64,000 nt of DNA. Origin: a virus. Location of the stretch: the IMG/VR virus record IMGVR_UViG_3300025131_011243, positions 1-64,000 of that record; one strand, 5' to 3'. This document shows, piece by piece, positions 16,246-47,271 of this stretch (the first letter of the stretch is position 1; each line of letters starts with the position of its first letter). The notes beneath the pieces were generated by a model. That model worked only from the letters and a program-made list of their open reading frames with translations, had not been told where the DNA came from and made no database searches. A program made the translations under genes and the position numbers.

Positions 16246-17907
16246 TTAGCCACTTTGGGGACCATATATGGCCATGATTTCTGACCTAAGATTCAAGACA
16301 AATTGACGAGCTTCTTCTTCATTAGTGACCTCCCCGTTCCTCTGAGCCTCTAGAAGACTGTTTTGGGCCATTCCGATGAATCCCATAGTCTGTCCTTTGG
16401 GCAGATAGTGGGGCTTAAGGTCAGGATACATCTGCATAATTTCCCTACCATCGATAAACGGCTGTCTTGCTTTTTCAGTCATCTCTGCTCGATAAATTTG
16501 CATTGCTTCATACTGCCTGCGCTTCTTCTCAATTCCTTCAGGGGCATTCTCTCGCCCTGTAGCCAATTCATCCGCTGGCCCCAAGATTTGCCATATGAAT
16601 GACCAAGCTTTATCGGCAAGAGCATCGTTTTCTCCTACCATCTTTTTCATCTTGTCACGCATTCTCCCAAAGGCACCGCCCTTAACCTTCAAATCATCCG
16701 TACCCTCTTGTTCTTTCGTGATGTCAGCGTGATGCGCATACATATGGAACGCAACCAAAGTGTTGACAAACTTCCTGTCTTCCTCTGAGATATATCCCAT
16801 AGTTTTAGTAACAGCGTCAGATATCTCCATGGACCTGTTTTCATGCCCCTTGTACGTCATTCTTTCAGGTTCGGTCTCATGGGGCTTTTGGATATCAGGT
16901 GCCAATTTGCCAAGATCGTGGAACACAGCCGCAAGATTAACAAGAGATCTTTCATTATCAGGCAAGCCCAATTCCTTGGCCTTTTTATTTGCTTCCTCTA
17001 TAACCAGCAGCGTATGCTTCATCACATCCCATTTGTGATAAGGAGTCTGCTGATCCATTTCGATAGGTTTAAGATTTTCCGTTTCAGGAGACTTGAACAC
17101 CTCTCTGTACAAACCGGAGGAAAACAGAAGCCTCATTCCTTTTTCCGGATTGTCGGCTGACAACGTCTTTAAGATTTCAGGACCCGCACGTTGCGAATCG
17201 ACGCTTCCATACGAAGCCTGAACTTCAGGATCTGCCATCGCAGCTTCCGTAGCAGGATCAATCGTTGACTGAGGGTAGCGAGCATAGAACCTGGCGAGCC
17301 TCAACATTCTCAGAGGATCGTCACTGAATGTCGTCTTGGGGTCAAGTGGCGTGCGCAACGTCATGGTTTGAAGATCTTGCATTCCTTTCTTAGTAAAATC
17401 TTCTACCTGACCATTCTCTATGTTGTAGAACATGGAGTTGATAGTCAGATCTCTTCGCTCAGCATCTTCTTGAGGCGTCCCCATCATCATTTCTGTAGGG
17501 ATACGTGAGCCAGTTTCATAAATACCTGACGGTTCCTTTCTCATGTTTACAAAATCAATCTTCTGTCCGTCGATTTCGATAGCCGCCGTCGCCAAGTGTT
17601 TTGATTTATCCAAGTTTTGCGGAACGACGTAGGATCCCCCAATCAGACCTCTTGGGACCTGATTCTGTTGGACGTATAGTTTAATTGCTTCAACAAAATC
17701 CTTACCAGTCATTCCTTCAAGAGAAATATCAATATCATCGCTATCTTGATCCATCAACTTATCTCGAACCCATCCTCCGGCGACACGGGGATGAGGATCG
17801 TTAGGAAGCGACTGGGCTACCATCGTAATAACATCGAAAACCTTTCGTTCATGGTCAGTGATAACGATAGGAGATTCGTTTTGAGATACTTTACGATACC
17901 AATTCAT
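16246..17907 (-). CDS. cca: CCA-adding enzyme/poly(A) polymerase family nucleotidyltransferase with HD domain; MNW leader
   Basis: VAGGWVRD, DIDI, EDAERRDLTINS, DDPLRMLR, FHDLGK; start reassigned to MNWYRKVSQ. Confidence 0.92.
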   Translation of the reverse strand: MNWYRKVSQNESPIVITDHERKVFDVITMVAQSLPNDPHPRVAGGWVRDKLMDQDSDDIDISLEGMTGKDFVEAIKLYVQQNQVPRGLIGGSYVVPQNLDKSKHLATAAIEIDGQKIDFVNMRKEPSGIYETGSRIPTEMMMGTPQEDAERRDLTINSMFYNIENGQVEDFTKKGMQDLQTMTLRTPLDPKTTFSDDPLRMLRLARFYARYPQSTIDPATEAAMADPEVQASYGSVDSQRAGPEILKTLSADNPEKGMRLLFSSGLYREVFKSPETENLKPIEMDQQTPYHKWDVMKHTLLVIEEANKKAKELGLPDNERSLVNLAAVFHDLGKLAPDIQKPHETEPERMTYKGHENRSMEISDAVTKTMGYISEEDRKFVNTLVAFHMYAHHADITKEQEGTDDLKVKGGAFGRMRDKMKKMVGENDALADKAWSFIWQILGPADELATGRENAPEGIEKKRRQYEAMQIYRAEMTEKARQPFIDGREIMQMYPDLKPHYLPKGQTMGFIGMAQNSLLEAQRNGEVTNEEEARQFVLNLRSEIMAIYGPQSG

Positions 17908-18271
17908 CTGTCCATGGTCCTTGATGGTCATGCTTTACCTGATTCCTCAACGCCTGTTCAGGGCTATATCTTACTACATTCTGCGGCTTAAACAAGTCGT
18001 AAAAATCAGCATTTTCTATAGACCCTCTACCCGACATATTCATCTGCCAATCGTACACTCTTCCGACAGCTTCTATCCAAGCATGTTCATACCTTTTCGG
18101 CTCTAATGCTAATGGCTCCTCCACCGTTCCGTGACATACGAAAATATTTTCTTCAGGGACGACCCCATCTTCAACCATTGTCCAAGCCAATTCGTTTGCA
18201 AAGGGGAAGCACAGACCGATAGGACAGGTCTCCCGTTCATTGGCCAATTTAACTACTTCATGCCAATTCAT
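17891..18271 (-). CDS. MNW-leader transglutaminase/papain-like protein
   Basis: MNWHEVVKLAN; GLCF, HAWIE, VYD (Cys-His-Asp). Confidence 0.65.
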   Translation of the reverse strand: MNWHEVVKLANERETCPIGLCFPFANELAWTMVEDGVVPEENIFVCHGTVEEPLALEPKRYEHAWIEAVGRVYDWQMNMSGRGSIENADFYDLFKPQNVVRYSPEQALRNQVKHDHQGPWTDELVS

Positions 18272-18734
18272 TGCAGTCGTCCCCGCCCATGCGAACAATA
18301 CGGATATCCCTAATAGCTTCCGGAGGAATCACTGCCTTTTTCCTAGACGAGTAGGAAGGATTGATCAAAAACTGATTCCTACCCGATCCTCCGGTTTCTC
18401 TACTGACCGATTGACTCATAAACCATTGTGAATCAAGTTCCATCCTGATGACGGCTGACTTATCTTTTTCCGCCATTGCTTTCATGCATCCATAGACAGC
18501 AGCTTCAGACGAAGTAGTCGAAAATCCGACATGACCCAAGTCGTCATGCGTAATCGTTCTTTCTTGCAGAATCTTTCTAGCCCTTTTTAGGCTTGTTCCA
18601 TGAAAAACAATATACCCGCCTTCTGGGCTAAGATCGGGCGGCGTATCTCTTTCATGTATGGTATCGCCTACCCCCTCTCTCAATGGAAAGGGGGGCCACT
18701 CTTGTTCCTCTTGGGCGTAATGAAACCAATTCAT
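18258..18734 (-). CDS. MNW-leader ADP-ribosyltransferase-like protein
   Basis: MNWFHYAQ; VFHGTS, GFST, A.VY, IPPEAI. Confidence 0.6.
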   Translation of the reverse strand: MNWFHYAQEEQEWPPFPLREGVGDTIHERDTPPDLSPEGGYIVFHGTSLKRARKILQERTITHDDLGHVGFSTTSSEAAVYGCMKAMAEKDKSAVIRMELDSQWFMSQSVSRETGGSGRNQFLINPSYSSRKKAVIPPEAIRDIRIVRMGGDDCNELA

Positions 18735-19159
18735 TCTTTGTCATCCGGATGAGGAATCTTAACCGCTTGAATGCCATGCTCTTCAGCACTGTCAATATCT
18801 GGTTGGAAGTCATCATGATGTATAGCCGCACCTATCTCGGCCAACTGCGGACCTTTATGATCTCCGCTGGTGAAGTAAATCTGATCAACGGGAAGTTTGT
18901 GCTTAGCAATAAAATCGGCAACAGAAATGCGACCGCTTTCTTGATCGTGGGTCGATTCGGCCTCTTCGTTTCTTGATGTGACGACAACAATACGATGACC
19001 AGCCTCATGGTATTTGGTCATTCTCTGTATGCTGTCCCAGTTGGGTTCCATGCCGCCACGCCATAGCTGATCTTCCCATGACCATATAGGCATAGTGAGA
19101 GTGCAGTCGAAGTCGAACGATACTGTACTGGGAGATTCCAACTCTTGATACCAATTCAT
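18731..19159 (-). CDS. MNW-leader HAD-family phosphatase
   Basis: SFDFDCTL, VVTSR, K, HHDD. Confidence 0.8.
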   Translation of the reverse strand: MNWYQELESPSTVSFDFDCTLTMPIWSWEDQLWRGGMEPNWDSIQRMTKYHEAGHRIVVVTSRNEEAESTHDQESGRISVADFIAKHKLPVDQIYFTSGDHKGPQLAEIGAAIHHDDFQPDIDSAEEHGIQAVKIPHPDDKE

Positions 19160-19236
19160 AGCCATTTTTCTTCCTGACGCTCAGTTTATTTACTGAATTC
19201 TGGCTATGGTATCCTCTTATGTCGTAAAACGCAAGG

Positions 19237-19582: not shown

Positions 19583-19625
19583 AATGCATCCTCTAGTTAG
19601 GTTACTGTAATATAGATCGTCTGAT

Positions 19626-20354
19626 CTAGGCGGAGACATCCAGCCCGGCTCCGGAAACATATCGCTTGAATTCTTCCACAAATGACCTATCATTAGATGG
19701 GTTGGCATTAAATGAGTCATGTTCAAAAAAGATAGCTTGATTGCTAACGTCTTGCCCCTTAAGCCAAACTACCTGTACTTTGTTTCCAGGCATATTTGCG
19801 GTTACCGCTTCTGATCCATATGGGTTGCCTCCGGCACTATTCCATATAGCCATAACCCTACCAGCATATCCCAATGTAGCCTCATTAGCATAGGCAGTAA
19901 AACTACTTCTAAAAAAACTGCCATCAAAAGCATCGAATGAGATTTTACGCACCTCTCCATGCTTCACGGCTTCGTCGTAGATGGATTTTAGACAAAAATT
20001 CAGATTCCTAAAATCACTGCCGACCCCATTGTACGTTGATCTTTCATCTGTTTGCCACTCAGGCAAGTCTGAAGTTTGTCTGCTTTGATACCCAAAATCA
20101 TGAGGCACCCATTCGTCCTGACCAGAACCCGGTTGATAGGTAGACCAGTCAACATCCTTAACAATATCCCATGCTTCGGATATCTCAACCATCCTCACAC
20201 TATCTCCACCTGGACGATCCGGATGATACTTCATAGCCATTTGTCGGTACTTGTTCTGCACTTCGCTACGAGACGATGGCGTACCCGAAATACCCAAGAC
20301 ACCCAAGGCATCTTCAATACTCATTCTTCTTACTGCTGATTTGAACCAGTTCAT
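19626..20354 (-). CDS. MNW-leader J-domain (DnaJ) protein
   Basis: ALGVLG, YRQMAMKYHPDR, ISEAW. Confidence 0.85.
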   Translation of the reverse strand: MNWFKSAVRRMSIEDALGVLGISGTPSSRSEVQNKYRQMAMKYHPDRPGGDSVRMVEISEAWDIVKDVDWSTYQPGSGQDEWVPHDFGYQSRQTSDLPEWQTDERSTYNGVGSDFRNLNFCLKSIYDEAVKHGEVRKISFDAFDGSFFRSSFTAYANEATLGYAGRVMAIWNSAGGNPYGSEAVTANMPGNKVQVVWLKGQDVSNQAIFFEHDSFNANPSNDRSFVEEFKRYVSGAGLDVSA

Positions 20355-21040
20355 ACCGTAATCGCCTCAGAAGGGCTTGGGGTAGGATCTAGCTGAGGAT
20401 CGCTATCGCCGCCTCTTCCGCCTCTATTGTTCCACCATCGATCAATCTCTTTCTTCAACCATTCTGCTACCTCGTAGGGCGTGGTTAGTCCCTCAACGCC
20501 ATCTATTCTTTCCATGTCGAATCTTGGATCGCCTTTTCTAGCAATAGGTATGGGATATTGATGCAACTGCATATGCTCTTTACTGTCGATCTCGTCTCCC
20601 GGCATCATACCCGGACGCCAACCTTCAGCAAAGCATCTGAATGTCAAAAGCTTATGACCGATCTGTGAATCAAAACTTCTAACCTCTTCGTATGGAGATC
20701 CATATTCTCGTTCTTTTACATCTCTTTCTTGACTATTGCTGGGACCCCACCATTTACCGCCAGGAGGATTGTTGTCGGCAAAGTATCCGGGAGGATACTC
20801 CATGTTCAAATGCTTGTTGATCTCCCAGAAACATTTGAAGTAGTATCTGTCGCCTTCTGTTTTGACGTTAGCTCCCTGCATTTCTATGACACCATATTTT
20901 TGCAACCTGTAACTGGGCATCAACTTCCTGGTTTCAAGGACACCCCAATCACCGCCAACAATATGGGATACCGACTGGAAGATGTGGTTAGGCATATCTT
21001 CAATCCTAGCTTTGCCAGCAAATTTAGAGAACCAATTCAT
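20351..21040 (-). CDS. MNW-leader protein, unknown function
   Basis: MNWFSKFAG. Confidence 0.75.
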   Translation of the reverse strand: MNWFSKFAGKARIEDMPNHIFQSVSHIVGGDWGVLETRKLMPSYRLQKYGVIEMQGANVKTEGDRYYFKCFWEINKHLNMEYPPGYFADNNPPGGKWWGPSNSQERDVKEREYGSPYEEVRSFDSQIGHKLLTFRCFAEGWRPGMMPGDEIDSKEHMQLHQYPIPIARKGDPRFDMERIDGVEGLTTPYEVAEWLKKEIDRWWNNRGGRGGDSDPQLDPTPSPSEAITV

Positions 21041-21042
21041 GA

Positions 21043-22356
21043 TCACTCTACTGTTCTAAGGCTTAACCACTTAATGGTTTTTTCCAATTTATCTTCCAGG
21101 TAGCTGTCGGGACCTGCTTGCTCGATTATCTGTTGGTATTTTTCTGTGTTGGAATTGATAAGTGCCCTGACATCAAAATTCATTTTATTTAGACTTTCAA
21201 GGATAGAAACCAAAACTTCCGGATTGGTTTCCGCATCATGCATACGAAGCATGGATTCTGTATCTCCAAGACTCTTGTACCCTTGAACTACATATCGCCT
21301 ATTGGTTTTCTCTATGGCAGTTTCATAAGCCTGAAGAACGTCAGGCCACTTCTTTGCTGTCGCCAACTCAATAAATTGTTCCTTCGACAACCAATAGGGA
21401 TCAAGCCCAATTTTGTCCTGTTGGGGATGATAAATACTGGCAAACTGTTTCCCAACAGAACGTACCAAATCAGCAATCTCCGGATGACCGAACCCCCCTT
21501 CCTGATGCTTCCGTATTAGTTCATCTCGATTTTCGTTTGTTTCTTGGTCACGAGGATAAGATCCCTTAAAATATGACATAAGCATTTCAGTGTTACGAGC
21601 CTTAATTTCCGGCTGAGGATGAGACAGGATATGCATTGCCATTGTATCCGGATTCTGTAAATCCTCACTATAAATCTTTAAGTCTTCTTTATCATAAGAA
21701 CTGCCTGGGCTGGTGACGAACTCTCCCCACAGATATGGGTCCAACTCTCCACTCAATGCCTTCGGCGGGACATCAAATCCGAATTGTTCTTTCAAAGATT
21801 TTGAATCAGCCATCATAATTTGAACAGGACTCATACCCTCATTGCTTCCTCGATTACTTCGGTCAGCAGTTGAGTACCATCCTCCTTGAGCCCCGTTAGG
21901 TCCCATTTGCAAAGGCACTGTTCCCTTAAGTAGATAGACTACGTCACCGATAGAGACAGCAGTACCCTCTCGTATCTGATCTAGTATGTAATCAATTCTT
22001 TTCTTCTCATATTCGCCTGAATGAACATCCATATCCCATTCAGTAATGGGGTTTCCACCCGCTCCTACACCCGTAATAAACGGATTGGGTTCAATGGGAT
22101 TGAGATAAATACGACCTTGATCTGCATTGATAAATGATATCTCCCAATAGGGCGTCATATTGAGAGTTTGATCAGCGACCTTATCTCCTATCGATGCCGA
22201 GTTCATGTCATGAATACCACCCGGATCGTCAAACCAATCGATGTACCATCCTTCAGTAGTGTCTTTCTTAATCTTGGAGAATGGATACATCCAAACACCT
22301 TGGCTCTCAAATACCCTGTCACCCAATGGAGCATTAGCTTGTTTGAACCAGTTCAT
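21043..22356 (-). CDS. MNW-leader protein, unknown function
   Basis: Start reassigned to MNWFKQANA. Confidence 0.75.
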   Translation of the reverse strand: MNWFKQANAPLGDRVFESQGVWMYPFSKIKKDTTEGWYIDWFDDPGGIHDMNSASIGDKVADQTLNMTPYWEISFINADQGRIYLNPIEPNPFITGVGAGGNPITEWDMDVHSGEYEKKRIDYILDQIREGTAVSIGDVVYLLKGTVPLQMGPNGAQGGWYSTADRSNRGSNEGMSPVQIMMADSKSLKEQFGFDVPPKALSGELDPYLWGEFVTSPGSSYDKEDLKIYSEDLQNPDTMAMHILSHPQPEIKARNTEMLMSYFKGSYPRDQETNENRDELIRKHQEGGFGHPEIADLVRSVGKQFASIYHPQQDKIGLDPYWLSKEQFIELATAKKWPDVLQAYETAIEKTNRRYVVQGYKSLGDTESMLRMHDAETNPEVLVSILESLNKMNFDVRALINSNTEKYQQIIEQAGPDSYLEDKLEKTIKWLSLRTVE

Positions 22357-22436: not shown

Positions 22437-23018
22437 ATGGATAAGACCCCATGTTGTTTTTATCAAATATTTGGGTCTAAAACGCCTGTTTCAACACAAA
22501 AAGAGGGGCATGGCGATTGTGGCTGTTGCGTGCCTAGCCCAGAGGATAATCCCAAATGTACCGGCTTTTATCCAGCCCCAAGAATACGTAAGTTTGAAGT
22601 GAAGAGCGACAGATTGCTTTATCTGTTATTGTTAGGCATCTCTTTGATGTCGTGTGCCGATTTATATGCAACCATATTTCATGCCATCAATTTCGGTCTT
22701 TTTGAACTTAATCCGATTGCTGCTTTTGTTCTAGCGGGTGGGGTTTTTAGCCTAGTTATGTTCAAGATGGGAGCTACTGGTATCACAGTAGGGTCTTTGC
22801 TTAAGGCCAATGAGATCTCTAAGAAAAGGTCCTATAAAAGCAGGATTACTATTTACTTGGGAACGTGGATCATGTTCTTAGTCATGTCTTGGTTGACCTA
22901 TTACTGGTATGTTTATACAGACTTTATCAATGAGAACGCACATCAAATTATGGAAATTCAGACTAGAAGCGATGCTCCCATTCATAAAAATGATGCCATT
23001 TTTTTGCCGCAAGAATAA
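22437..23018 (+). CDS. DUF5658-like membrane protein
   Basis: ADLYAT...FELNPIA...FKM, several TM segments. Confidence 0.6.
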   Translation: MDKTPCCFYQIFGSKTPVSTQKEGHGDCGCCVPSPEDNPKCTGFYPAPRIRKFEVKSDRLLYLLLLGISLMSCADLYATIFHAINFGLFELNPIAAFVLAGGVFSLVMFKMGATGITVGSLLKANEISKKRSYKSRITIYLGTWIMFLVMSWLTYYWYVYTDFINENAHQIMEIQTRSDAPIHKNDAIFLPQE

Positions 23019-26000
23019 GCTGCTGACTTAATGCACTTGAACCAATTCGTACCTGCGGTTGAATCTGCGTCCTGAGAATCCTGTGGTGCTTGAGGCATCT
23101 GTTGAGGAGCTTGCTGAGGTACTTGAGGAGTAGCAGCAACTGGCGGGATGATTCTTGCCCTCTTTAATCCTATCCCCCATTTGGGGTCTATCTGCACAAT
23201 GCCCCCGACCCTTATATCATCCCCTGCTGAGAAACTGTCGTCGTCCATGAAGGCAGTAACCTTGTTTCCTTGTATGTCTTCAAGAACATACCGTTGGTTG
23301 TATCTTGACGGAGTGCTAGATACAACTCTGAAGTCATTCTCAATCGTATCTCCGTCGTTGTACGCTACTGCCGCTGCTTGTGGAGCGGGTCTTAAGGTCG
23401 CAAAGAGTTGTCGAGGATCTTCAGAAGATACCGGTTTGCCTTTGTCATCTCTTACAGACTCTACCTGTTTGGCAACATCTTCGTTAGTATAGACTCCACC
23501 TTGACCTGATTCGTCTTGCCATTGCCAGTTGCCGTCATCGGTTCTCGTAAGAACGACGGGCAGTCCATTGGCATGTTGTTTGGCGAGATACCAAGTAAGA
23601 ACTGGAGGATTGATAAAGTCTTCCATCTGCTTGTCGGTCGCAGCAATCTGGTCTTGGTAGGTTTGGTCGTCAATAACAGAAACGTCGGTCAATACGGTTG
23701 CGAATTTTTGGCCAGTATAGAAAGATCCTGATACCGTACCTTGAATTGCAACATCTTGGCCCATATTGGCATCAAGTTCGTCTATCAGCCATGTAACGGT
23801 ATTTTGTCTCTGTCCATCTTCAGCTATGTTGTACATGCTGGCTTGAGGATGCTCTTTGGGATTGTCTTGCAATATCTTGACCAGTATGGGTTTCTTCTCA
23901 ACCAGTTTCCCTTTGAATACAACTTGAGAACCCTCAGGACCCACCAAGTCTTCGTTCTGGGTTTCAATACCCTTGGATTGTAACATCCTCTTGTATTTTT
24001 CAGGTAACCATGCTGCCGTACTATATGTTTTCTTCTTAACAACGCCTGTTTCTACGGCGTTGTGTATGTTCCAATTGAATTCTGCATTTGATCTTTCTCT
24101 AGAATTCATTTGAGCATTGTTGGGGTCATCTGGATCGAATGGGGGTACGGTACTTATCCATTCCAACGCTTGATTAACAGTCGCTAAGTCTCCAGCGGAT
24201 ATGGGGGCGTCTTCGCTGTACTTTTCGTCGGAATCTCTGCTAACGCACATGTTGTAAGCTATCTCTGGAGTAGACGCATCCCCAGTCCGCTTGGAATCTG
24301 TTTTGCTCACAAATCCATGGGCGTTCTCAAGGGCCATTACTTTGCTTAGAAACAGGGCTACAGGTATGCCTTTCTTTTCATAGTATTTCCTCAATTGCAT
24401 CTCATCCATATCGCCGCCTAGTCCTGCTCTTATCTCTTTGAGAAGTTCGTTAAGCTTGGAGGCGTAATTGGCTATGGAATTGGGGCTGTTGTCTTTGGAT
24501 TTAACAAAGTCGCTTAGACAAGAGCTACCTACGCATTTAAGTTCTCCGCTTTCGGTATTACTAAGCATGTACAGAAGGACTCTCTTCCTTTTTTCCCTAC
24601 AGTCTTCGCATATGGCCCTGATGTTTTGGGAATCGTATTCTGTAACCACTTTTGATTCTACTGCCTGCTGTTCTTTTTCGTCATTCGTAAAGTGCTCTAC
24701 GTTGTTGGTTATCTTGCCAGTTTCCATGTCTTCTGTGGGCATGACTTTGGACAACAGTTGCCATCCTTTGATGATTGGTATGTTGCCTATGATTCTTACT
24801 TTTTGAGACCGGCTTAGTCTATCAGCATCCAAAACTTCTACATGAAGAGGGGGCAATCCCAGCTTGTCTGCCCTGGCATTGAGTTTTTTGATCTTGCCTT
24901 CCAGCCATTTCATAGACTGTTCGGGGACATCGAATTCATGAGTTTGCCCCAAGTCTTCAGTGTGCGTTTGTTCTATGGTGGCGGGGATATCTTGAGGTCT
25001 GATTTGTTGGATATACGCCATGATATCTTTGGGGACGTATTGCCAGTTTTCTTCATTCTTTCTTGTAGCCTTTAGCCAATATTTGACTTCATGATCTTTG
25101 GGAACGATGTCTTTCATTTCTGTGGGGATGTCTTCCCATCGGCCTGGATTACCTTGTAGATATCTGTCCCAAATATTGATGAGAATCTCTTCGGGGATTT
25201 GTTTCTTGACATCATCTCCGACTTCTCTCCATTGTTCCCAATAATGAGTTGGGGCAGACTTGAGTTTTCGGATAAGGAAATCAACCTTGATAATTTCTTT
25301 GTACTTCTCTTGAGATTCTGGGGAAAGTCTCTGGATTCTACTTTCGTCCTCATATAGGAAGTTGATCATCGCATTATCAAATATGTCTTCAGGTATGTGG
25401 GGGAAATCTTCTGATTTTAGCGTGATGGGGTCGTCGTTCAGCCTAAGGGCTGCAATGCTTCCAACAAGTTGTCTTCGTTCTGAATGGAGAATCTGTTCGT
25501 CCTGTACAGCACCTTGCATCTTTTGTATAGCTTCTTTTGTAGAATCTCCGCATGACTCCCAGTTGGGATTCTTGTATGTTGTTCCATCTATGAAGGCAAA
25601 TTCGATTGGAATAACATGAAGATCTCTATAGGTAAGGACGCATTTACCATCGTTCTCACCGGTATAAACGATGCCTTTGACTCCGGTTTTGTCCAAGTTG
25701 TATCTTGAAGTGAACGGCTGAGCGATATGAGAAGAATAGTATTCTTTTTCTAGATCTTCGCTCCATCCTTCTATCTGTTGCCAGTGATTCTGCTTGGTTT
25801 CGTCATCGGTAGACGGGTCGATAATAGCATCGATACCAATGATACTTTTGATCTGATCCGCTAAGCTGTAATTGCTTCCATACACTTCTTTTGCAACGGG
25901 ATAGTCGAAGATGACGAATCCGTTTAGATCGACTTGACCTTTGATTACGTAGCCACCATAAGCCCTCATATTGCCAGATTGATATGAAGATCGAAGGTCG

Positions 26001-31938: not shown

Positions 31939-32037
31939 TTATGAAGATCCCAAAGATTCCCTGATCTCTCTACGAATTTTCATCAGAAGTCTACCGAGAT
32001 GATTTTCTCCCTGCCCATTGCGGACTCCCCAAGTCAT
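31939..32037 (-). pseudogene. C-terminal fragment of a NADAR (YbiA) family gene
   Basis: MTWGVRNGQGENHLGRLLMKIRREI matches the NADAR WG..G.G.N.LG.LLM..R motif. Confidence 0.75.
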
Positions 32038-39256: not shown

Positions 39257-39276
39257 TGCTACATCTTACTCAAATA

Positions 39277-39879: not shown

Positions 39880-40554
39880 ATGAATACAGTAGATACCCCA
39901 TGCCGTCTATGCCACTCTTTCGGCTTCTGTCAAAAATACGAACAAGACTACGCCAACCATGTAGACAAAAAAGGTGTATGGCAAAAATGCATGTCCCCTA
40001 TCCGTAAATGTCAGCATGCCATCGCCGATTTCCATTTAGACAAACTCCAAGGAGTCGATATCCTAGAAGTAGGATGCGGAAGCAAACGAAAAGGCGAATT
40101 CATCAAGAACTTGGTTACTCCCCATTGCCAATGGCGAGGTATGGATATTAAGAAGACTGACCTAACAACTGACATAGGAAGAGTCGAGAACATGCCATTT
40201 AACGATGAAGAGTTTGACATTGTTATCGGCAATCAGACGATGGAGCATTGGGACGACATCCCCAAAGCTTTGAGCGAGATCTACCGAGTCATGAGGCATC
40301 CTGGCGAATTGTACCTCAACGTTCCTATCTACCTTCATGGGTCAGAATATTTCGTCACTGGCAACTTGGAACCTGTAGCCAAAATGCTTAAGGAAGCCGG
40401 TTTTCACAACATCGTTGTGGAAACATGGAGAAAGGGCCATGAAGGTCTGGGAAGATACTTCCCCGGCGAATCGAAGAAGCATTGCAAGAAATTCGGCATG
40501 AAGATAGAAGATACAACTTCAGCCTATATCGCAAACTTCACCTGCGATAAATGA
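39880..40554 (+). CDS. class I SAM-dependent methyltransferase
   Basis: ILEVGCG, MPFNDEEFD, TMEH. Confidence 0.88.
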   Translation: MNTVDTPCRLCHSFGFCQKYEQDYANHVDKKGVWQKCMSPIRKCQHAIADFHLDKLQGVDILEVGCGSKRKGEFIKNLVTPHCQWRGMDIKKTDLTTDIGRVENMPFNDEEFDIVIGNQTMEHWDDIPKALSEIYRVMRHPGELYLNVPIYLHGSEYFVTGNLEPVAKMLKEAGFHNIVVETWRKGHEGLGRYFPGESKKHCKKFGMKIEDTTSAYIANFTCDK

Positions 40555-40980
40555 TCACGATACAGAATCAGCAAACTCAATCGCATACTGCTTCGCCTGA
40601 TCCAATGTCTTAGCAGGACCGTCATACTGAGTCTCATTGCCGCTAGGCGTAGCTGCCACAGGTTCATCTCCGATTCCAAAGTTACTCATAGCTCTATGGC
40701 TCCACCCCCACCAGTTCTGACTTTCCTCTTCGAACCCTATCGAGCAAACATCATGATCATCGCATGAAGCCTCTGGAGCTATACCCTTTTCTTCGATAAG
40801 CATCTTGGCTGTTTCCACATCCCCTATGTAGCACCCGCTGTCAGCGTAGGCGGATTCCATTTCCACCCTTCCATCTTCGTCATTACCCACCTGAGTATCT
40901 TCGGTACGAACTTCATAGCCGTCGAATTTTTCTACGTTGAGCACCTTCTTCTTTAACTGAGCTTGTTTATACCAGTTCAT
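40555..40980 (-). CDS. MNW-leader conserved phage protein
   Basis: MNWYKQAQ; CSIGF..WWGWSHRA. Confidence 0.75.
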   Translation of the reverse strand: MNWYKQAQLKKKVLNVEKFDGYEVRTEDTQVGNDEDGRVEMESAYADSGCYIGDVETAKMLIEEKGIAPEASCDDHDVCSIGFEEESQNWWGWSHRAMSNFGIGDEPVAATPSGNETQYDGPAKTLDQAKQYAIEFADSVS

Positions 40981-41506
40981 TGAGATCCTCTTGGGCGGGC
41001 CTTAGACCTTCGCCTTTTACCAATAGTTCAGATTCAGCATACCCACGTTGGAATAGATCTATGACAGCTACAACATCCTGCTTATTAACTACATAAGTAT
41101 CTGGATCAACCCCTTTCTGGGTAGCAAAGAAATTGGCTGTTGACATATCTAAAGTAACAGGAACAACAGGCCCCTTAGGAACCCCTCCTCGATGTACGGT
41201 TATCCACTCTGGCATACCTTGCAATGCCTGCTGAGATAATCTAACAACTTCATCTCTTGCTGCCAAAATTTCATTCCTGAATTCAGGACCATGCATATTG
41301 GCCAGATCTTCCTCGTTTATGCCTAAATCTGAAAGAGCATCATACATATCAACATCATCATCAAACAGATTTGCTATTACATCTGAACCAGATGACGTAT
41401 CCATAAAGTTACCCTGAACATTCAGTAAAGCCTTAAGCCCCCTACTATTAACCTGTTCAGGCCCTAGCTTGCCCGGAAGTTTAGAAGTTTCTTTATACCA
41501 ATTCAT
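40967..41506 (-). CDS. MNW-leader ADP-ribosyltransferase-like protein
   Basis: MNWYKETS; TVHRG, VT...A.FFA, ESELLV (R..ExE pattern). Confidence 0.65.
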   Translation of the reverse strand: MNWYKETSKLPGKLGPEQVNSRGLKALLNVQGNFMDTSSGSDVIANLFDDDVDMYDALSDLGINEEDLANMHGPEFRNEILAARDEVVRLSQQALQGMPEWITVHRGGVPKGPVVPVTLDMSTANFFATQKGVDPDTYVVNKQDVVAVIDLFQRGYAESELLVKGEGLRPAQEDLNELV

Positions 41507-43392
41507 TCTACAACCCCAATCGGTTCGAGTACCGTTCCATCCCAAGTTCTCCATTCGCCCAAAGACGATACCTGATATCCCATAGCATTGGGCTTGGGAA
41601 CAAACTCCATGATCGAAACCTGTTCTGGATCTACCTTCGACAGCCCTACGGCATCGCTCAAAAAGAACAAAGGATTTAAAGGACCACCAGCCTCTTCCCT
41701 GAACGTTATCCACTCTTTGTACAAATCAAAACGCTTGTCAATCAATTCATCCGAAGTAAGCCTTCGACGGAACCTTGTATACTTAGTCTCCACCCCAGTG
41801 CCATGGGGCCATGCTTCTCCCACAGGTTCCCACTCCCATTCGTCCTTCTCATTCTGTTCTTCAACTGTTTTGGGGAAAATGAAAGCGTCTGTATATTCAT
41901 ACCCTTCAAGAGTAGCCTTGATGTCAATTGGCATTTCGTCTGTATCTTTTCTGCTGTGGTAGTAGTAGATATTTTTCAACCAAGGTCTATCCGCATCTTC
42001 CCCCTTTGCTGCCATATCTAACATTTGCTCGATTGAGATTTTATTCTTGGCTACTTTCACGCCATCCAGCAACGAACTCTTGATAGCCCTGGCGACATCG
42101 ATGTCGGTCGTAAAGCTGATCGTATCGCTTGCTCCTCCGCCAAGACCTAATCCAAGACCCTGAGATAATTCTTCTCTGGTCTTCAGACCGCTATTGATAA
42201 CTTCATCTCTTGCTGTCGTTACATGGTACAATCTCTGCGGCAAAGGCTTAACTGTTTCGATATTGCCTACGTTAAGAAGGAGACCTCTGTCCCTTGCAGT
42301 TTGGGGATTTATTTCTCCCCTTCCTATGGCACGTTGCATTTGGCCCTTCCATTCTCTCCTTTTGTTCCACCATTCTTTATAGGCATCCTCATCGTCGCCA
42401 TAGCGTTCATCCCATGGACCGGCATAATCCTTTTCAGACATATCCCAAAGATTGGATTGTGACTCTTTATGCCAGTTCATCTTGTCCGCTTCCATTAGGT
42501 CGGCTGACAGGTCACGCCACGCCAGGTCGATCCACGCCTGTTCATGGGTTCCAATCAGAGCATGGTCCACGCCACTGCCATGGATGCCGCTCTCGTGATC
42601 AGAGATGCGGACCTCGATCACTTCATCGCCCCGATCCAGCGTGACGTATTGGCTGAAGGAGCGGGACGAAGGCTCGGTGTACACACTCCAGCCGTGCGAC
42701 CTTGCCGTGTCCGTGACCGCCGCAACGGCCTGCTCGACCCATTCAACTCGGGCATCGTCATCCGCCAAGTTGGGGTCTATCGCCGGAGGCAGATCAATGG
42801 CTTCCGGCTCGGCTACTTCGGCCTCCTCATCTCCAGGTTGATTGGCTTCTTCGACAAGCTGACGATAATATGATCTAGCCAGACTTTCTCCAGCAGGCGT
42901 CATTTGCCCTAAAATCTGATCTGGTTTTCTATTCTTCATCCATTCAGATAATAGATAAGTACCTATCCCCATACTTTGCATTTCATCCACAACCCACACG
43001 CCAGGAACTCCCCATTCATCAGATACTAGACCCACAGCCTCGCCTTGCTCAAAAGCTACAATAGTGTTATTGTATAAATCCTTGCCTTGCAATCTTATTT
43101 CTTCATCAGTTAAATACAAAGCCAAGCCCTTTTCATCTCTAACTATTTCATCATTATCATCTGTTCGCACGTATTTGTTTTTCTCTCCATTCTGCCTAAA
43201 CTCAATAGGCATATCTCCAAATACCTTTTGGGAATGTAAAACAGGATACCCTTCTATCTGCATCCAAGACAGGCCCTCTCTATCCGCATAATCTTCATAA
43301 GCATCAGACGAGATATCTCCTGTACGATGATGGTCTATGAATTCATCCTCTGTCATATCTGTTACATTTTGTGCAAATTTATACCAGTTCAT
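41503..43392 (-). CDS. MNW-leader fusion: GNAT + GC-rich insert domain + internal MNW + ART-like domain
   Basis: WVVDEMQSMGIGTYLL; VRISDH; internal MNWHKESQ at 42480; LYHVT/ISFTT/GEWR. Confidence 0.75.
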   Translation of the reverse strand: MNWYKFAQNVTDMTEDEFIDHHRTGDISSDAYEDYADREGLSWMQIEGYPVLHSQKVFGDMPIEFRQNGEKNKYVRTDDNDEIVRDEKGLALYLTDEEIRLQGKDLYNNTIVAFEQGEAVGLVSDEWGVPGVWVVDEMQSMGIGTYLLSEWMKNRKPDQILGQMTPAGESLARSYYRQLVEEANQPGDEEAEVAEPEAIDLPPAIDPNLADDDARVEWVEQAVAAVTDTARSHGWSVYTEPSSRSFSQYVTLDRGDEVIEVRISDHESGIHGSGVDHALIGTHEQAWIDLAWRDLSADLMEADKMNWHKESQSNLWDMSEKDYAGPWDERYGDDEDAYKEWWNKRREWKGQMQRAIGRGEINPQTARDRGLLLNVGNIETVKPLPQRLYHVTTARDEVINSGLKTREELSQGLGLGLGGGASDTISFTTDIDVARAIKSSLLDGVKVAKNKISIEQMLDMAAKGEDADRPWLKNIYYYHSRKDTDEMPIDIKATLEGYEYTDAFIFPKTVEEQNEKDEWEWEPVGEAWPHGTGVETKYTRFRRRLTSDELIDKRFDLYKEWITFREEAGGPLNPLFFLSDAVGLSKVDPEQVSIMEFVPKPNAMGYQVSSLGEWRTWDGTVLEPIGVVE

Positions 43393-43856
43393 CAATACCT
43401 CACCATATGAGCAGAACCATCTGAATTCGTTGATTCAATATCAAAACCAAAACGATCCTCCAGAACGTGGACTAACCTTGGATTAATAACCCATAATCTC
43501 ATCATCGTTTTCATATCATACTGACTGCTGAAGCTTTCGTAATACTCTATGGCCTCTTTGATCAGCTTGATTCCTACCAATCCTTTCCCTCTAAATTCCG
43601 GCAAAACAGAAATGTCAAATGAAAACACAGATACGTCATCCTCATTACCCCATCCGCTGGAAATCGCACCAATCACACGACCATCCTCAATAGCCAGATG
43701 AGATAAGTCCTTGGTAGAATCCGGCCTTACTCCACTGTCTTCAAAGACCTTATCAGCTTGATCGGCCAGGTCGTAGATATCCTCATCAAGATCGATGTCT
43801 ATATCATCTTCCAATGAGAACGGAACGATATTCACAGCTTGCTTATACCAGTTCAT
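43392..43856 (-). CDS. MNW-leader GNAT acetyltransferase
   Basis: ISVLPEFRGKGLVGIKLI. Confidence 0.8.
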   Translation of the reverse strand: MNWYKQAVNIVPFSLEDDIDIDLDEDIYDLADQADKVFEDSGVRPDSTKDLSHLAIEDGRVIGAISSGWGNEDDVSVFSFDISVLPEFRGKGLVGIKLIKEAIEYYESFSSQYDMKTMMRLWVINPRLVHVLEDRFGFDIESTNSDGSAHMVRY

Positions 43857-44391
43857 CTTTGTCCTCATTCTGATCTAGAATCATAACAGCATTCGAATCT
43901 GGGTACTTGTTGACGAATCCCATGTCCTCGTACCATTTTCTTAGCTTCTTGGAATTCAATCCAGGTTTCCCTCTGCCAACTTGGCCATGAATGGGAGCCG
44001 GTTCGATAACAACCTTAACTCCAATCTCTTTAGCAACAGACAATAATTGCTGCATAGCTTCATTTCCTCTGCCGGATTTTCGTTCCGAAGGATCGACAAT
44101 AATACCGGAAAGAGTGATTTGATCATCCCTAGCAGAGTAAGAGTCTCCTACCATGACATAGTTCTTATGGGGATATAGATCATTACGAGACAGACCCAGC
44201 TTAACCTTGCCGTCTTGACTGACTAGCGTAGGATAAGTGTAGGATCCAATGTTCATAGCATTGGGGTTCATGCTCAGGTCTTCCATGTTCATGGCTTCTT
44301 CATAAGTCCAGCCATATTCTGCCATTTTATCAGCAATCATTTGGACCAGGTTGACATTGGACTCGGTCTGTGATTCTTTATACCAATTCAT
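43843..44391 (-). CDS. MNW-leader GNAT acetyltransferase
   Basis: IIVDPSERKSGRGNEAM, LRKWYEDMGF. Confidence 0.8.
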   Translation of the reverse strand: MNWYKESQTESNVNLVQMIADKMAEYGWTYEEAMNMEDLSMNPNAMNIGSYTYPTLVSQDGKVKLGLSRNDLYPHKNYVMVGDSYSARDDQITLSGIIVDPSERKSGRGNEAMQQLLSVAKEIGVKVVIEPAPIHGQVGRGKPGLNSKKLRKWYEDMGFVNKYPDSNAVMILDQNEDKDELV

Positions 44392-44403
44392 AGCTTATCT
44401 AAT

Positions 44404-44466
44404 GTTCTATAAATGGGGGTCATTATCCTTGCTGATAGAAGGTTATGCTATCCTTATTGCCGAAAT
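44404..44466. promoter_or_regulatory. back-to-back AGG-N19-GAA promoter-like motifs
   Basis: Minus: AGG 44429-44427 ... GAAC; plus: AGG 44440-44442 ... GAAAT; each precedes an MNW gene. Confidence 0.65.
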
Positions 44467-44472
44467 TGAGGT

Positions 44473-45228
44473 ATGAACTGGTTTAAGAAGATCTCGTCCG
44501 TCACCTTCTCCCCTTCCGGGACCCATGGTATAGCCCAACCCATGAGCCTGCTGGATCTATCTTCAGACCTATTTAGATTCGCAATTAAGAACAAAATAAT
44601 ATCAGGAAAACACAATAGCGTAGACGTAGATGGAGACAGCGACTGGATGTCAGGCTTGGGCATTATTAACTTCTACCTGACAGACGATGCTACCCTAGAA
44701 GATGTTAAAAGAGTCGTAGATGCCTATAACGAAAGCCAAGCAGGACAGGTCTATATTCAGGTGGGAAGGCAAGAACAATCCGGTATGATGGCTGGAGATG
44801 TTGTTCGACTGAACGTTATCAAAAATACTACATCAGACAGAGAAGAAGTGCCAGAAATGAACTTGGCTAATGCCAATGCCTATAAAATGATGCAAGTACT
44901 CAAAAGGTTTGGACTAAATATTGAAGATATCAATAATGGATGTATCGATGTGGACGACTACATGGGGGCAAGACAGTTGATGACCGATCAAACATTAAAA
45001 GAACATGAACAAAAATTCGACATGAATAGAGACTGGGACCAAATGATGGGGACATATCAAGAACCAGAACCATGGGAACAATCAGAGCCAGAAGAACCAA
45101 CGCCAGAGAATGTTCATGGTCCTGACTTTGACTTGAATAGAATAAACCAATACCTGTCAAGATTAGACGGTATCGCTCAATGGACCATTGACAACGATCT
45201 TCCTGATCGCAGAATTTGCTGGAGCTAA
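44473..45228 (+). CDS. MNW-leader protein
   Basis: MNWFKKISS; EMNLANANA. Confidence 0.75.
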   Translation: MNWFKKISSVTFSPSGTHGIAQPMSLLDLSSDLFRFAIKNKIISGKHNSVDVDGDSDWMSGLGIINFYLTDDATLEDVKRVVDAYNESQAGQVYIQVGRQEQSGMMAGDVVRLNVIKNTTSDREEVPEMNLANANAYKMMQVLKRFGLNIEDINNGCIDVDDYMGARQLMTDQTLKEHEQKFDMNRDWDQMMGTYQEPEPWEQSEPEEPTPENVHGPDFDLNRINQYLSRLDGIAQWTIDNDLPDRRICWS

Positions 45229-45461
45229 CAGAATATAGACGCCTTTACGATCTTGTCGTTTTCGATATGAACACACATTCGATTGGGAATGGCACAGTAA
45301 TCCAGATGCTCCTCAATAAACTTCCCATCAACACTCAAAATGCTAACGAACAACGGCTTGCCCTCTCTGTCCCTCTTGCCCTTAAGAGCAAACTTAGCCT
45401 CCCTGTGCGTTAGACCTATAATGGACTGCTGAAGAGCCTCTCGTTCTTCTGTCGGATTCAT
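45225..45461 (-). CDS. hypothetical protein
   Basis: Likely start MNPTEE after GGGGAG. Confidence 0.55.
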   Translation of the reverse strand: MNPTEEREALQQSIIGLTHREAKFALKGKRDREGKPLFVSILSVDGKFIEEHLDYCAIPNRMCVHIENDKIVKASIFC

Positions 45462-45462
45462 A

Positions 45463-45885
45463 TTAACTCCCCAATACCATAGGATATTTACCAAAACCTA
45501 TCTTCTCGCTGTCGATGGGGTCTTGAGGTTTATCAAACGCTGACGGAACAAGATATCCAAACAAGCAACTTCCTCCCCATCCTTCTTCGTAAGCATTGCC
45601 ATCATGAACCCATATACTGACTCGCATCCAACCACTTTCTGCCCAGACTTCGAACAACTCGTCAAAAACAAGCTTCTCTCTGAAAGCAATGTATTCTTCT
45701 TGGTTTTCGTGCGGGATTGCAATGCAGATGTTAAGTCCGTACAACTTGTCTTTGTCTTCACAGTCTTTGGGAACAAGATTAAAAGGCATGGCAGCTAGAC
45801 ATGACATACTGGATATGGGAATACTATCACGCTCTCCAGTCTTCTGATTTACGAAGAACATTTTCTTCATGGCATTCCTACGCAA
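45463..45885 (-). CDS. hypothetical protein
   Basis: 140 aa ORF. Confidence 0.6.
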   Translation of the reverse strand: MRRNAMKKMFFVNQKTGERDSIPISSMSCLAAMPFNLVPKDCEDKDKLYGLNICIAIPHENQEEYIAFREKLVFDELFEVWAESGWMRVSIWVHDGNAYEEGWGGSCLFGYLVPSAFDKPQDPIDSEKIGFGKYPMVLGS

Positions 45886-46232
45886 AAAGGAGGCTCTCTA
45901 AAAGCCTTAAACACCAAACCATTGCCGATTACAAGTGGAACTACTTTAGCAATCATGTCAATACACGATTGCTCGTCATCGAACTTGCAGAAAGTGCAAT
46001 CCCCAGTCATGACTTTCTCCATACCGTCAGCACGATATGGAGGAGTTCTCATAGGGTTAAAATATAATCCCCATTGTTCGGTCTGGGAAAAGAGCATGAA
46101 TTTAGCATCGATGCCGTAGATCTCTCCAAGATCCTCATCGACCACGAACCTAGCCATGAAATCTTCAAAACTATTGATCTCTTCTGGATTAAAATAATCT
46201 CTGATACTCATGCAATATAGATCGTCACACAA
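45867..46232 (-). CDS. hypothetical protein
   Basis: 121 aa ORF. Confidence 0.55.
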   Translation of the reverse strand: MCDDLYCMSIRDYFNPEEINSFEDFMARFVVDEDLGEIYGIDAKFMLFSQTEQWGLYFNPMRTPPYRADGMEKVMTGDCTFCKFDDEQSCIDMIAKVVPLVIGNGLVFKAFREPPFCVGMP

Positions 46233-46249
46233 ATTGCCAGATCTTGAAC

Positions 46250-46630
46250 CTAGAACATGAAGCCGTCTTCGTCGTCTTGTCTTTCTCGCTCAACTATATA
46301 GGGCTCCTCTACCTCATACGCTTCACTACCATAGGCTGGATCTATAGTATGAAAAGAACTATCACTCTCCGGGGTCCACCCTTTATCAGCCTTAGCTTGA
46401 TACTCGGATGCTTTCTGATCGGAAGAATTCTGATCTCTGGTTCCAAGGTCAGCAGCCCAACGAGATCCATCTGTCATTTCGGCAACAATATAAAAGGATT
46501 CTCCATAGATGTGACCACTGGGATTCTCCATATCAGCTAACTCTGGATCTTGTCCAATCACCCCATAATCTGATCGGGCAAAAACTCGAACGACCCTATC
46601 TTTGTACCCTGAAGTTTTAACAATCCTCAT
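46250..46630 (-). CDS. second-leader protein (MRIVKTSGY)
   Basis: Leader plus IDPAYGSEAY motif. Confidence 0.7.
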   Translation of the reverse strand: MRIVKTSGYKDRVVRVFARSDYGVIGQDPELADMENPSGHIYGESFYIVAEMTDGSRWAADLGTRDQNSSDQKASEYQAKADKGWTPESDSSFHTIDPAYGSEAYEVEEPYIVERERQDDEDGFMF

Positions 46631-46641
46631 AACGATATCCT

Positions 46642-47271
46642 TTATATGTACTCTACCTTGGCTACTTTCAGTGGACCATTGAACGCAATACTACCACCTC
46701 TTCCAACAAATTGCAACAAATCCTCTTGACTCATGATGGATTTCATCTTACGAGCAACATCCTTGACCATCTCTGAATAAGAGGCGTCAACATTATCAGA
46801 CCCCTCCATCATCTCGTTTGTCGCATGAAATCCATCAAATGCCTCGTCCATCGAAACGTTGCCCCACTCCGGATTACGATCCTCTTGGATCATTCTCCTG
46901 TAAGCCTCCCAGACCTCTTTGACCCCCGGCTCGCTAGAAGAAGGATTTGTATCAGATAAATAGTCTGCAACCTGATCTTCATCAGGCATAGCTAAGTTGT
47001 AGTCAGGAACAGCATGGATAACAGCTACACCTTGAGCCTTGGTAATGCTGGAGATCTCTTTAGCATACTTAATTGCTGCGTCTTTTGAAAAGAAACAATA
47101 AACGCTATCCGGGTCTGAGGGGTTTCCGCCAAAAAACCCTCCGCTCCAATTGCCTGGTCCCGATCCTCTGGGAGAGATAATTCCATCTTGCTCAATCTTT
47201 TGGGCAAGAGAAGCTATCGTTCCATGATAAACGATGTTGGACAAAGATTGGGAAGTCTTGTACCAGTTCAT
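46642..47271 (-). CDS. MNW-leader ADP-ribosyltransferase-like protein
   Basis: VYHGT..I..DGI, VY, A.KYA, PDED. Confidence 0.65.
   Translation of the reverse strand: MNWYKTSQSLSNIVYHGTIASLAQKIEQDGIISPRGSGPGNWSGGFFGGNPSDPDSVYCFFSKDAAIKYAKEISSITKAQGVAVIHAVPDYNLAMPDEDQVADYLSDTNPSSSEPGVKEVWEAYRRMIQEDRNPEWGNVSMDEAFDGFHATNEMMEGSDNVDASYSEMVKDVARKMKSIMSQEDLLQFVGRGGSIAFNGPLKVAKVEYI

Follow-up and report, generated by a model that had tools for sequence, protein, structure and literature searches.

A short N-terminal peptide shared by unrelated accessory genes of a phage-G-like huge phage, with nameable carriers that in part resemble anti-defence and polyvalent-protein modules

Some twenty non-homologous accessory genes in the virus record IMGVR_UViG_3300025131_011243 (IMG/VR) share one short N-terminal peptide, referred to here as the MNW tag. 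The window under study comprises the first 64,000 nucleotides of this 122,591-base record (called G000), which CheckV places at 26% completeness, or about a quarter of a genome. A first-pass annotation, made from the letters of the window and covering positions 16246-47271, had described the carriers of the leader as a toolkit of host-modifying enzymes. Those carriers that can be named appear, in part, to share their domains with the polyvalent proteins of phages and plasmids and with anti-defence proteins; they include a Tad6 homologue, GNAT acetyltransferases, candidate ADP-ribosyltransferases (ARTs), RNA-end enzymes, a J-domain protein, and the C-terminal module of a two-module fusion (the C-module). 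We favour, tentatively and at somewhat less than an even chance, the reading that the tagged genes would be an unfused, tag-addressed version of the polyvalent-protein and T4 internal-protein arsenal, with packaging and injection proposed by analogy.

The enrichment of the tag and its INDEPENDENCE from paralogy are both apparent from the window. Counting both strands, ATGAAYTGG occurs 28 times, compared with 1.06 +/- 1.05 times in 100 shuffles, and 22 of the 28 copies open reading frames of 82-629 amino acids that start MNW[F/Y/H]. These 22 comprise 21 genes and one internal copy, an in-frame MNWHK at residue 305 of the 629-amino-acid open reading frame (ORF) 41503-43392. The rest of the contig adds a single tagged gene (96106-96810), and all the others lie between 14.7 and 52.9 kb; 18 of these genes, along with the internal copy, fall within 16246-47271. 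Eighteen of the 22 tagged genes are on the minus strand, and in 13 no possible start codon of the reading frame lies ahead of the MNW methionine. An all-against-all BLASTP comparison of 166 ORFs found no paralogy among the tagged proteins. The leader noticed by the first-pass annotation is thus a genuine feature of otherwise unrelated genes.

The consensus spans roughly eight residues, M-N-W-[Y/F]-[K/R]-x-[A/I]-x, and the DNA upstream of it is not conserved. Among 86 unique tagged ORFs from G000 and related records, the asparagine codon is AAT in 44 and AAC in 42, position 4 is Y in 67, F in 14, and H in 3, and position 5 is K in 62 and R in 10 (AGA in 7, CGT in 3). On this codon variation, a DNA- or RNA-level element was rejected, and the pattern argues that the tag is selected at the protein level. 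It also appears to be an add-on to a functional domain. For example, the Pfam model of Tad6 begins at residue 19 of its tagged carrier (40555-40980), and an untagged 124-amino-acid homologue of 46642-47271 starts MSKKVTWHGT, two residues ahead of the conserved WHGT and without the eleven tag residues. Five orthologue pairs between G000 and G001, G002, G004, or G005 retain the tag at 25-53% overall identity. In the literature searched, MNWYK, MNWFK, MNWYKK, and MNWYKQ had no relevant occurrence.

The tag is not confined to G000. With its counterparts in G001-G003, three complete viral genomes of 461-548 kb, the major capsid protein of G000 (57183-58055, minus strand) shares 85-86% identity, and with the major head protein of Bacillus phage G it shares 53%; by these identities, the record is a fragment of a phage-G-like huge phage. 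At the nucleotide level, positions 40100-48000 had no match among GenBank phages. A 20-base tag pattern retrieved 12 viral contigs, and whole-record counts of ATGAAYTGGTWY came to 7, 14, 13, 5, and 14 in G001-G005, compared with 2, 0, 0, 0, and 0 for the reversed control; G001-G003 are complete sister huge phages, and G004 and G005 are fragments. The tag is at chance level in phage G (2 occurrences) and in four other large phages (0-1). A Pfam scan of 63 tagged proteins of the relatives returned helix-turn-helix domains (3), ART-PolyVal (2), PcfJ (2), and DUF5661 (2), along with one each of AAA_33, 2H-SAK, Peptidase_C39_2, HicA, GNAT, Glucosaminidase, and SLT. In one tagged ART-PolyVal protein, from G003 (56.2 bits), the domain runs from residue 11, directly after the tag. 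A long tandem array was found in G005 (stretch 64000-82207, local positions 4446-13429), where an S8 subtilase gene is followed, after 134 bases, by 14 tagged genes. Eleven of these 14 are paralogues within a small family, MNWY[K/R]xIKxA[L/V]P[V/I]...[I/V/Y]GH, that has single copies in G002, G003, and G004.

The tagged genes of the window are given below with the opening residues of each product; an assignment is called firm when the Pfam match exceeds the curated cut-off.

14710-15099, minus: MNWFRY; 129 amino acids, no function assigned; outside the range of the first-pass annotation
16246-17907, minus: MNWYRK; class II nucleotidyltransferase with a CCA-adding/poly(A) polymerase head (PF01743, 78 bits), RNA-binding (PF12627, 24.8 bits), and HD (PF01966, 24.8 bits) domains
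17891-18271, minus: MNWHE; 126 amino acids, no family match in Pfam or PHROGs
18258-18734, minus: MNWFHY; 158 amino acids, ART-superfamily lead (Tpt1/DUF3990-like) from a sub-threshold PF01885 match and ESM Atlas neighbours
18731-19159, minus: MNWYQE; borderline HAD-like phosphatase/5'-nucleotidase (PF06189, 27.0 bits, cut-off 28.2), DxDxT visible
19626-20354, minus: MNWFKS; J-domain protein (DnaJ, PF00226, 33.6 bits, cut-off 27.8), HPD visible
20351-21040, minus: MNWFSK; 229 amino acids, no function assigned
21043-22356, minus: MNWFKQ; 437 amino acids, no function assigned
26261-26884, plus: MNWYKR; 207 amino acids, no function assigned; first in a run of two tagged genes and an S8 subtilase gene
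26881-27462, plus: MNWFKE; 193 amino acids, no function assigned; tagged orthologue in G002 at 25% identity
32808-33440, minus: MNWFKF; methyltransferase-like, weak (21.8 bits, cut-off 27)
34997-35245, minus: MNWFNQ; 82 amino acids, no function assigned
35242-37647, minus: degenerate tag, TTG start, (M)FGNWYT; UvrD-type superfamily 1 helicase (UvrD, 57.8 bits)
40555-40980, minus: MNWYKQAQ; Tad6-family protein (PF25188, 121.3 bits, cut-off 27, E 4.5e-35, model positions 6-145 of 145)
40967-41506, minus: MNWYKE; 179 amino acids, candidate ART by motif only (HRG...STA...ESE)
41503-43392, minus: MNWYKF; 629-amino-acid fusion of a weakly GNAT-like N-part (15.9 bits) and the C-module
41503-42480, minus: MNWHK; the C-module with its own tag, a 570-protein family
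43392-43856, minus: MNWYKQ; GNAT acetyltransferase (PF00583, 26.3 bits, cut-off 20.7)
43843-44391, minus: MNWYKE; borderline GNAT-like protein (PF00583, 20.3 bits, cut-off 20.7)
44473-45228, plus: MNWFKK; 251 amino acids, no function assigned; tagged orthologue in G001 at 25% identity
46642-47271, minus: MNWYKT; 209 amino acids, ART-superfamily lead (DarT/DUF3990/Tpt1-like) from ESM Atlas neighbours
50422-50691, minus: MNWFKI; 89 amino acids, no function assigned; outside the range of the first-pass annotation
52161-52862, minus: MNWFKQ; 233 amino acids, no function assigned; outside the range of the first-pass annotation

The clearest anti-defence gene of the window, missed by the first-pass annotation, is 40555-40980, which by sequence is a homologue of Tad6, a type I Thoeris inhibitor family. 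The match runs through the Pfam model almost end to end, and the protein differs from Tad6 in having 18 extra N-terminal residues, the tag among them. A review describes Tad6 as co-purifying with ThsB, whose active site it is predicted to block (PMC13728456). Several of the enzymes proposed earlier are firm, namely the J-domain protein, the CCA-adding enzyme, and one of three suggested GNATs (43392-43856). The second GNAT (43843-44391) falls marginally below its cut-off, and the third, the N-part of 41503-43392, is a weak match whose counterpart in G004 is a separate tagged gene of 205 amino acids (53% identity, 18.4 bits to GNAT). The supposed HAD phosphatase is borderline. The S-adenosylmethionine-dependent methyltransferase has a profile match that is present but weak, and its tagged G005 orthologue (45.5% identity) scores 22.4 bits on the same profile segment. 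The UvrD protein is likewise firm in its assignment as a helicase and carries at best a degenerate form of the tag. A Cys-His-Asp enzyme had been proposed for 17891-18271, for which no family could be found. Outside the window, tagged gene 96106-96810 encodes a cell-wall hydrolase with a membrane segment directly after the tag. PHROGs matches were only to families of unknown function.

The ART component of the proposed toolkit fared worst. None of the five suggested ART-like domains reaches any Pfam cut-off, and the ART-PolyVal model (PF18760) matched nothing in the contig at E<=10. Two of the five stand as leads only. The best ART profile score of the five belongs to 18258-18734 (PF01885, Tpt1/KptA, 15.8 bits, cut-off 26, E 0.015), and its ESM Atlas neighbours are Tpt1, DUF3990, Arr-ms, Tox-ART-HYD1, and PARP clusters. 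Those of 46642-47271 are DarT/DUF4433, DUF3990, and Tpt1, with template modelling (TM) scores of 0.45-0.61 by query. As leads, both sets of predicted-structure neighbours are consistent with an ART fold of the H-Y-E type. An AlphaFold2 model of 46642-47271 built from a three-sequence alignment had a predicted local distance difference test (pLDDT) score of 46.9 and was not used. For 40967-41506 and the N-terminus of 22982-26152, the ART reading comes from motifs only; strings such as YHGT, YHRT, LYHVT, and HRG..ST..ESE are readable in the candidates. Alignment of the five candidates with a five-sequence ART-PolyVal alignment by hhalign gave probabilities of 0.5-86%, the highest of which derived from the tag and HGT alone. 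Word-indexed homologue searches returned 2, 3, and 2 relatives for 46642, 18258, and 40967, respectively, too few for profiles, and for 46642 no relative turned up among viral contigs. Solved structures, searched by sequence, yielded nothing useful for 46642, 18258, 40967, or the family profile of the C-module. The last candidate, the C-terminal part of 41503-43392, is not classed here as an ART. Its AlphaFold2 model is confident, Foldseek returned no ART among its PDB matches, and in long homologues the module is distinct from neighbouring ART-PolyVal or DUF3990 domains.

This C-module links the window to polyvalent proteins. An exhaustive HMMER search returned 570 homologues, and the AlphaFold2 model (43-sequence alignment) reached a pLDDT of 92.6 and a predicted TM score of 0.87. 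Foldseek found no PDB match at E<=0.001 (best 0.61), the family profile had no PDB sequence match, no Pfam model covers the family, and tblastn found no homologue in 50,697 GenBank phage records. The only significant match among predicted viral structures was a "phage head morphogenesis domain containing protein" (E 1.5e-4). Invariant residues are H86, R102, GLGGG at 112-116, S122, R261, E309, and R311, within a family signature of LYHVTT...GLGGG...SFT...EWR. Among the best 150 of the 570 homologues, 46 are shorter than 420 amino acids, 24 are 420-800 amino acids long, and 80 have at least 800 (up to 5944). A domain scan of 35 of these 80 returned ART-PolyVal (5), 2',5'-RNA-ligase-type 2H (5), DUF3293 (4), GNAT (3), Phage_Mu_F (3), LigT (3), Zeta toxin (2), AAA_33 (2), and ADPrib_exo_Tox (2), with RNA ligase, ResIII, Arr-ms, PARP, and SAM lyase once each. 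By these annotations, the neighbours of the C-module are the repertoire of polyvalent proteins, which are predicted to be injected with DNA and in which ART is the commonest protein-modifying domain, typically with a GNAT beside it (Iyer et al. 2017, PMC5512222). The C-module looks like an undescribed enzymatic domain of such proteins, although it may already figure among the uncharacterised domains of that study. Read downward from 44391 to 40555, the window encodes a GNAT, a second GNAT, the GNAT-like N-part with the C-module, an unassigned protein, and Tad6. Given that the C-module family occurs mostly within polyvalent-type giants, this gene order reads as though a polyvalent protein had been divided into separate genes, each with the tag.

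The tag itself recurs in the C-module family. Eleven of the best 150 homologues start with MNW[FYH], and others start with MDWYK, MTWYK, or MNWLK. In the 104 homologues of at least 420 amino acids, NW[FY][KR] occurs 9 times, whereas composition predicts 0.7 and the reversed motif occurs once, and 6 of the 9 copies are internal. Two of the four copies in P0023 flank the C-module (at 1232 and 1572; module 1266-1566), and P0112 has an internal copy at 359, after the module ends at 341. These internal copies and positions indicate that the motif marks module starts even within fusions. In G000, the sole non-terminal NW[FY][KR] in the contig ORFs is in 22982-26152, with TNWFKCIKSAAY 20 residues from the C-terminus; at 1 in 38,868 residues compared with 0.26 expected for NWFK, this occurrence is not significant alone. 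Untagged stand-alone homologues of the C-module often carry other short starts, either NPNH/HPRD...G[RKQ]F-like or GGPGSG (P0078, P0104, P0108, P0118, P0148, and P0154; P0043 and P0139), and GGPGSGP is also present in window ORF 49414-50373. These starts offer a hint, at the sequence level, that the N-terminal address peptide on a given cargo may vary from one phage lineage to another.

The untagged genes of the window that are most relevant here are as follows.

6681-7493, minus: minimal S8 subtilase, 270 amino acids; counterpart of 267-283 amino acids in all three complete sister genomes
22982-26152, minus: 1056-amino-acid protein; N-terminal YHRT...GSGIYST (ART reading by motif), middle part matching phrog_2319
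27466-30300, plus: S8 subtilase (PF00082, 171.8 bits) with an intein with homing endonuclease (PF14890) and a lamin-tail domain (PF00932)
33925-34701, minus: HpcH aldolase (Pfam)
34671-35000, minus: IscA-type Fe-S protein (Pfam)
38804-39256, minus: CYTH-domain protein (Pfam)

Residues 924-1025 of the 22982-26152 protein resemble residues 109-209 of the UvrD protein 35242-37647 (a domain of ~100 amino acids, 45% identity). As the first-pass annotation had stated, the nearby metabolic genes lack the tag, including those for IscA, the aldolase, CYTH, UDP-glucose dehydrogenase, and a nucleoside hydrolase (34.1 bits, cut-off 34.2). Also untagged are a second methyltransferase, a BNR protein, GIY-YIG/NUMOD3 and LAGLIDADG endonucleases, HATPase_c_3, a glycosyltransferase, a portal-like protein, a release-factor-like protein, an AAA_28 kinase, a dUTPase, ribonucleotide reductase, a nicotinate phosphoribosyltransferase (NAPRTase), and an NAD synthase. 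No gene that could be placed in metabolism, replication, structure, or selfish elements carries the tag, and the annotations support an enrichment of conflict-type modules in the tagged set that is stronger than the first-pass annotation had recognized. The direction of this bias agrees with the earlier claim; we attach no statistic to it, since counts are low, function is unassigned for half of the tagged proteins, and sorting genes into classes involves some judgement. The more specific proposal of an effector set for host takeover or anti-defence is upheld as far as the conflict-type bias goes, Tad6 included, and is weakened by the unassigned half of the set and by the unconfirmed ARTs.

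Several other features of G000 were recorded. Another N-terminal motif, M-[R/K]-x-[I/V]-[R/K]-T-[S/A/K]-G-[Y/W], is common to five otherwise dissimilar ORFs interleaved with the MNW-tagged genes (46250-46630, 48524-48910, 48907-49410, 49414-50373, and 51532-52095, all minus), several of which have a clear Shine-Dalgarno sequence. None of the five has a Pfam family above the curated cut-off, and 48907-49410 has two sub-threshold matches (18.6 and 17.2 bits). This motif was seen only in G000; coverage of the relatives was limited to tag neighbourhoods. Three intein-bearing genes are present in the 122-kb record, encoding the S8 subtilase at 27466-30300, ribonucleotide reductase (85228-89040), and a 2306-amino-acid protein (58732-65652) whose gene lies immediately upstream of those for the capsid decoration and capsid proteins. 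Free-standing endonucleases are of the LAGLIDADG (3654-5705 and 56046-57035) and GIY-YIG/NUMOD3 (32034-32630) types. A HATPase_c_3 (MORC/GHKL-type) ATPase gene (54035-55669, minus) separates the capsid gene from the nearest tagged gene downstream. The release-factor-like protein (30311-30952, minus; 213 amino acids) has PCRF and RF-1 domains with a visible GGQ motif; no suppressor tRNA was found in G000, and long ORFs are read under the standard code. At 92165-95412, the NAPRTase gene adjoins that for a glutamine-dependent NAD synthase. Together with Tad6, the ART-like genes, CYTH, and the nucleoside hydrolase, this pair suggests heavy investment in conflicts over NAD and ADP-ribose.

If the tag is an address or handling signal, many interchangeable solo effectors could use one common pathway, and the tag would serve separate genes in the way that, in other elements, fusion into a giant polypeptide serves its modules. 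By analogy only, this pathway would be incorporation into the head and co-injection with DNA, as for the T4 internal proteins and Alt via the capsid targeting sequence (CTS), and the injected effectors would act before phage genes are expressed. Packaging with co-injection is our first choice on the strength of the T4 analogy and the polyvalent-protein link. T-even internal proteins are diverse defence proteins with only the CTS in common (PMC3012670), and the cargo of the T4-type system (IPI-III, Alt) includes anti-defence proteins and an ADP-ribosyltransferase, encoded at variable loci (PMC3012670, PMC5512222). The likeness to G000 lies in a short N-terminal peptide on unrelated proteins, here 22 genes starting MNW[FYH]. 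The two tags differ in sequence, and unlike the CTS, the MNW tag is followed by no cleavage motif and no T4-type prohead protease was found; the tagged set, at 22 genes in a quarter genome, is also far larger and richer in enzymes, its motif is also internal in fusions, and it is known here from genes alone. With polyvalent proteins, the phage group shares ART-PolyVal, GNAT beside ART, 2H phosphoesterase, kinases, peptidases, and peptidoglycan hydrolases. Within this shared repertoire, the window supplies GNAT and the C-module, and the tagged genes of relatives supply ART-PolyVal, 2H-SAK, PcfJ, a C39-like peptidase, SLT, and glucosaminidase. In contrast to polyvalent proteins, the modules are separate tagged genes with a single two-module fusion (41503-43392), and no MuF was detected in the clade. 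The ejection proteins of giant phages such as SPN3US and phiKZ offer a further comparison, as these large-capsid phages pack many different proteins for delivery into the cell (PMC5694885, PMC7411985, PMC10052503). Such ejection proteins have long propeptides with defined cleavage motifs that are removed by the prohead protease, and they were found by proteomics, whereas the present set comes from genes alone.

Several observations weigh against the packaging and injection of a tag-addressed arsenal. In addition to the failure of all five ART candidates to reach a Pfam cut-off, 11 of the 22 tagged proteins have no function assignable from Pfam or PHROGs, which leaves roughly half of the set to carry the functional bias. 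No residue is conserved beyond about position 8, and no conserved cleavage motif follows the tag. Searches of G000-G003 detected neither MuF nor an S77/S78 prohead protease (PF03420, PF04586); for S77 (PF03420) this result is uninformative, as its control was silent in every genome. Because the tag-like motif is internal in fusions, it may be a processing or docking site rather than a terminal targeting signal. Some cargo plausibly has a role inside the cell, such as the membrane-segment hydrolase at 96106 and the CCA-type enzyme. The latter could serve the phage itself by maturing its tRNAs, as none of the 11 tRNA genes clustered at 98755-109466 of G000 (Ser x5, Leu x5, Cys) encodes its 3' CCA.

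In the main alternative, which is rather unlikely and could coexist with packaging, the tag is a recognition or processing site for the cytoplasmic S8 subtilase of the phage. Tag removal or the splitting of fused modules would follow from a cut in the vicinity of MNW[Y/F]|[K/R], which might also expose a destabilising N-terminus (Trp, Lys/Arg) that times maturation or destruction. The presence of the tag-like motif at module junctions of fused homologues favours such a role, as does the distribution of the enzyme, which is encoded in all five tag-rich records (G000, with two copies, G001, G002, G003, and G005) and in none of five tag-less large phages (phage G, LR745208.1, Tunturi_5, Rctr197k, and NCTB). 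The subtilase gene also adjoins tagged genes, lying directly downstream of two on the same strand in G000 and ahead of the 14-gene array in G005. This co-occurrence may, however, reflect shared ancestry. The tag-rich complete genomes belong to one clade, as the 85-86% capsid identity of G001-G003 to G000 attests, leaving ~1-2 independent observations and making the co-occurrence only a lead; moreover, no S8 was seen in the incomplete fragments G004 and G006-G009. The cleavage step is itself a proposal, and the N-degron step draws on the bacterial N-end rule. A complex prediction for the 270-amino-acid S8 subtilase with the 82-amino-acid tagged protein scored 0.00, which is evidence neither way.

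Internal copies also count against the improbable idea that the shared first five codons or nascent peptide act in expression, through common initiation or regulation such as a Shine-Dalgarno-free start or T4 RegA-like control, since an initiation role is impossible within a fusion. Shine-Dalgarno-like words do stand upstream of no more than 6 of 20 tagged starts in G000 and, with all records pooled, 26 of 86, compared with mostly clear ones for structural genes, and many tagged genes abut or overlap the preceding gene. Nevertheless, the contrast with untagged genes is not significant (6/20 vs 47/96, p 0.14; in a stricter set, 6/20 vs 25/56, p 0.30), and free synonymous variation with conservative replacements (Y/F; K/R via AGA and CGT) argues against an RNA-level signal. 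We consider it very improbable that the motif is a functionless leftover of gene spread, whether a cassette edge or an ancestral N-terminal helix copied by recombination, with the toolkit appearance arising from accessory islands rich in conflict genes. Tandem arrays of tagged genes within variable regions would fit this account, and conservation in the C-module family extends past the motif, which there looks like part of the domain. Against it, the motif is kept on the divergent orthologues described above and across otherwise unrelated families, AAT and AAC are used nearly equally, the upstream sequences differ, and a five-residue match in 86 different proteins requires purifying selection. 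The packaging reading and the subtilase could also be combined: NW[Y/F][K/R] would then be the portable module-start signal of a "split polyvalent protein" system, in which the subtilase cuts or matures modules and the same motif docks them for head loading and delivery with the DNA. We regard this composite scheme as unlikely.

The new element in the favoured reading, an arsenal of separately encoded and tag-addressed effectors, is the joining of CTS-like tagging to the polyvalent-protein repertoire in a form that is simple, widespread, and testable. Huge phages have accessory genes in the hundreds that lack an explanation, and a five-residue signature of a coherent subset would provide a simple sequence-based route to candidate anti-defence and host-takeover proteins in metagenomes; the tagged subset already holds a known Thoeris inhibitor family along with polyvalent-protein modules. 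The tag-like motifs at fusion junctions suggest how polyvalent proteins and solo effectors interconvert. If the tag is a packaging or processing address, it would represent a second, independent case of capsid targeting as in T4, at far greater scale, and possibly a handle for the loading of proteins into large capsids. Should the module-start reading prove true, huge phages would possess a general means of sequence-addressed protein delivery, with cargo that can be swapped gene by gene, and the eight-residue tag would be usable for loading chosen proteins into large capsids.

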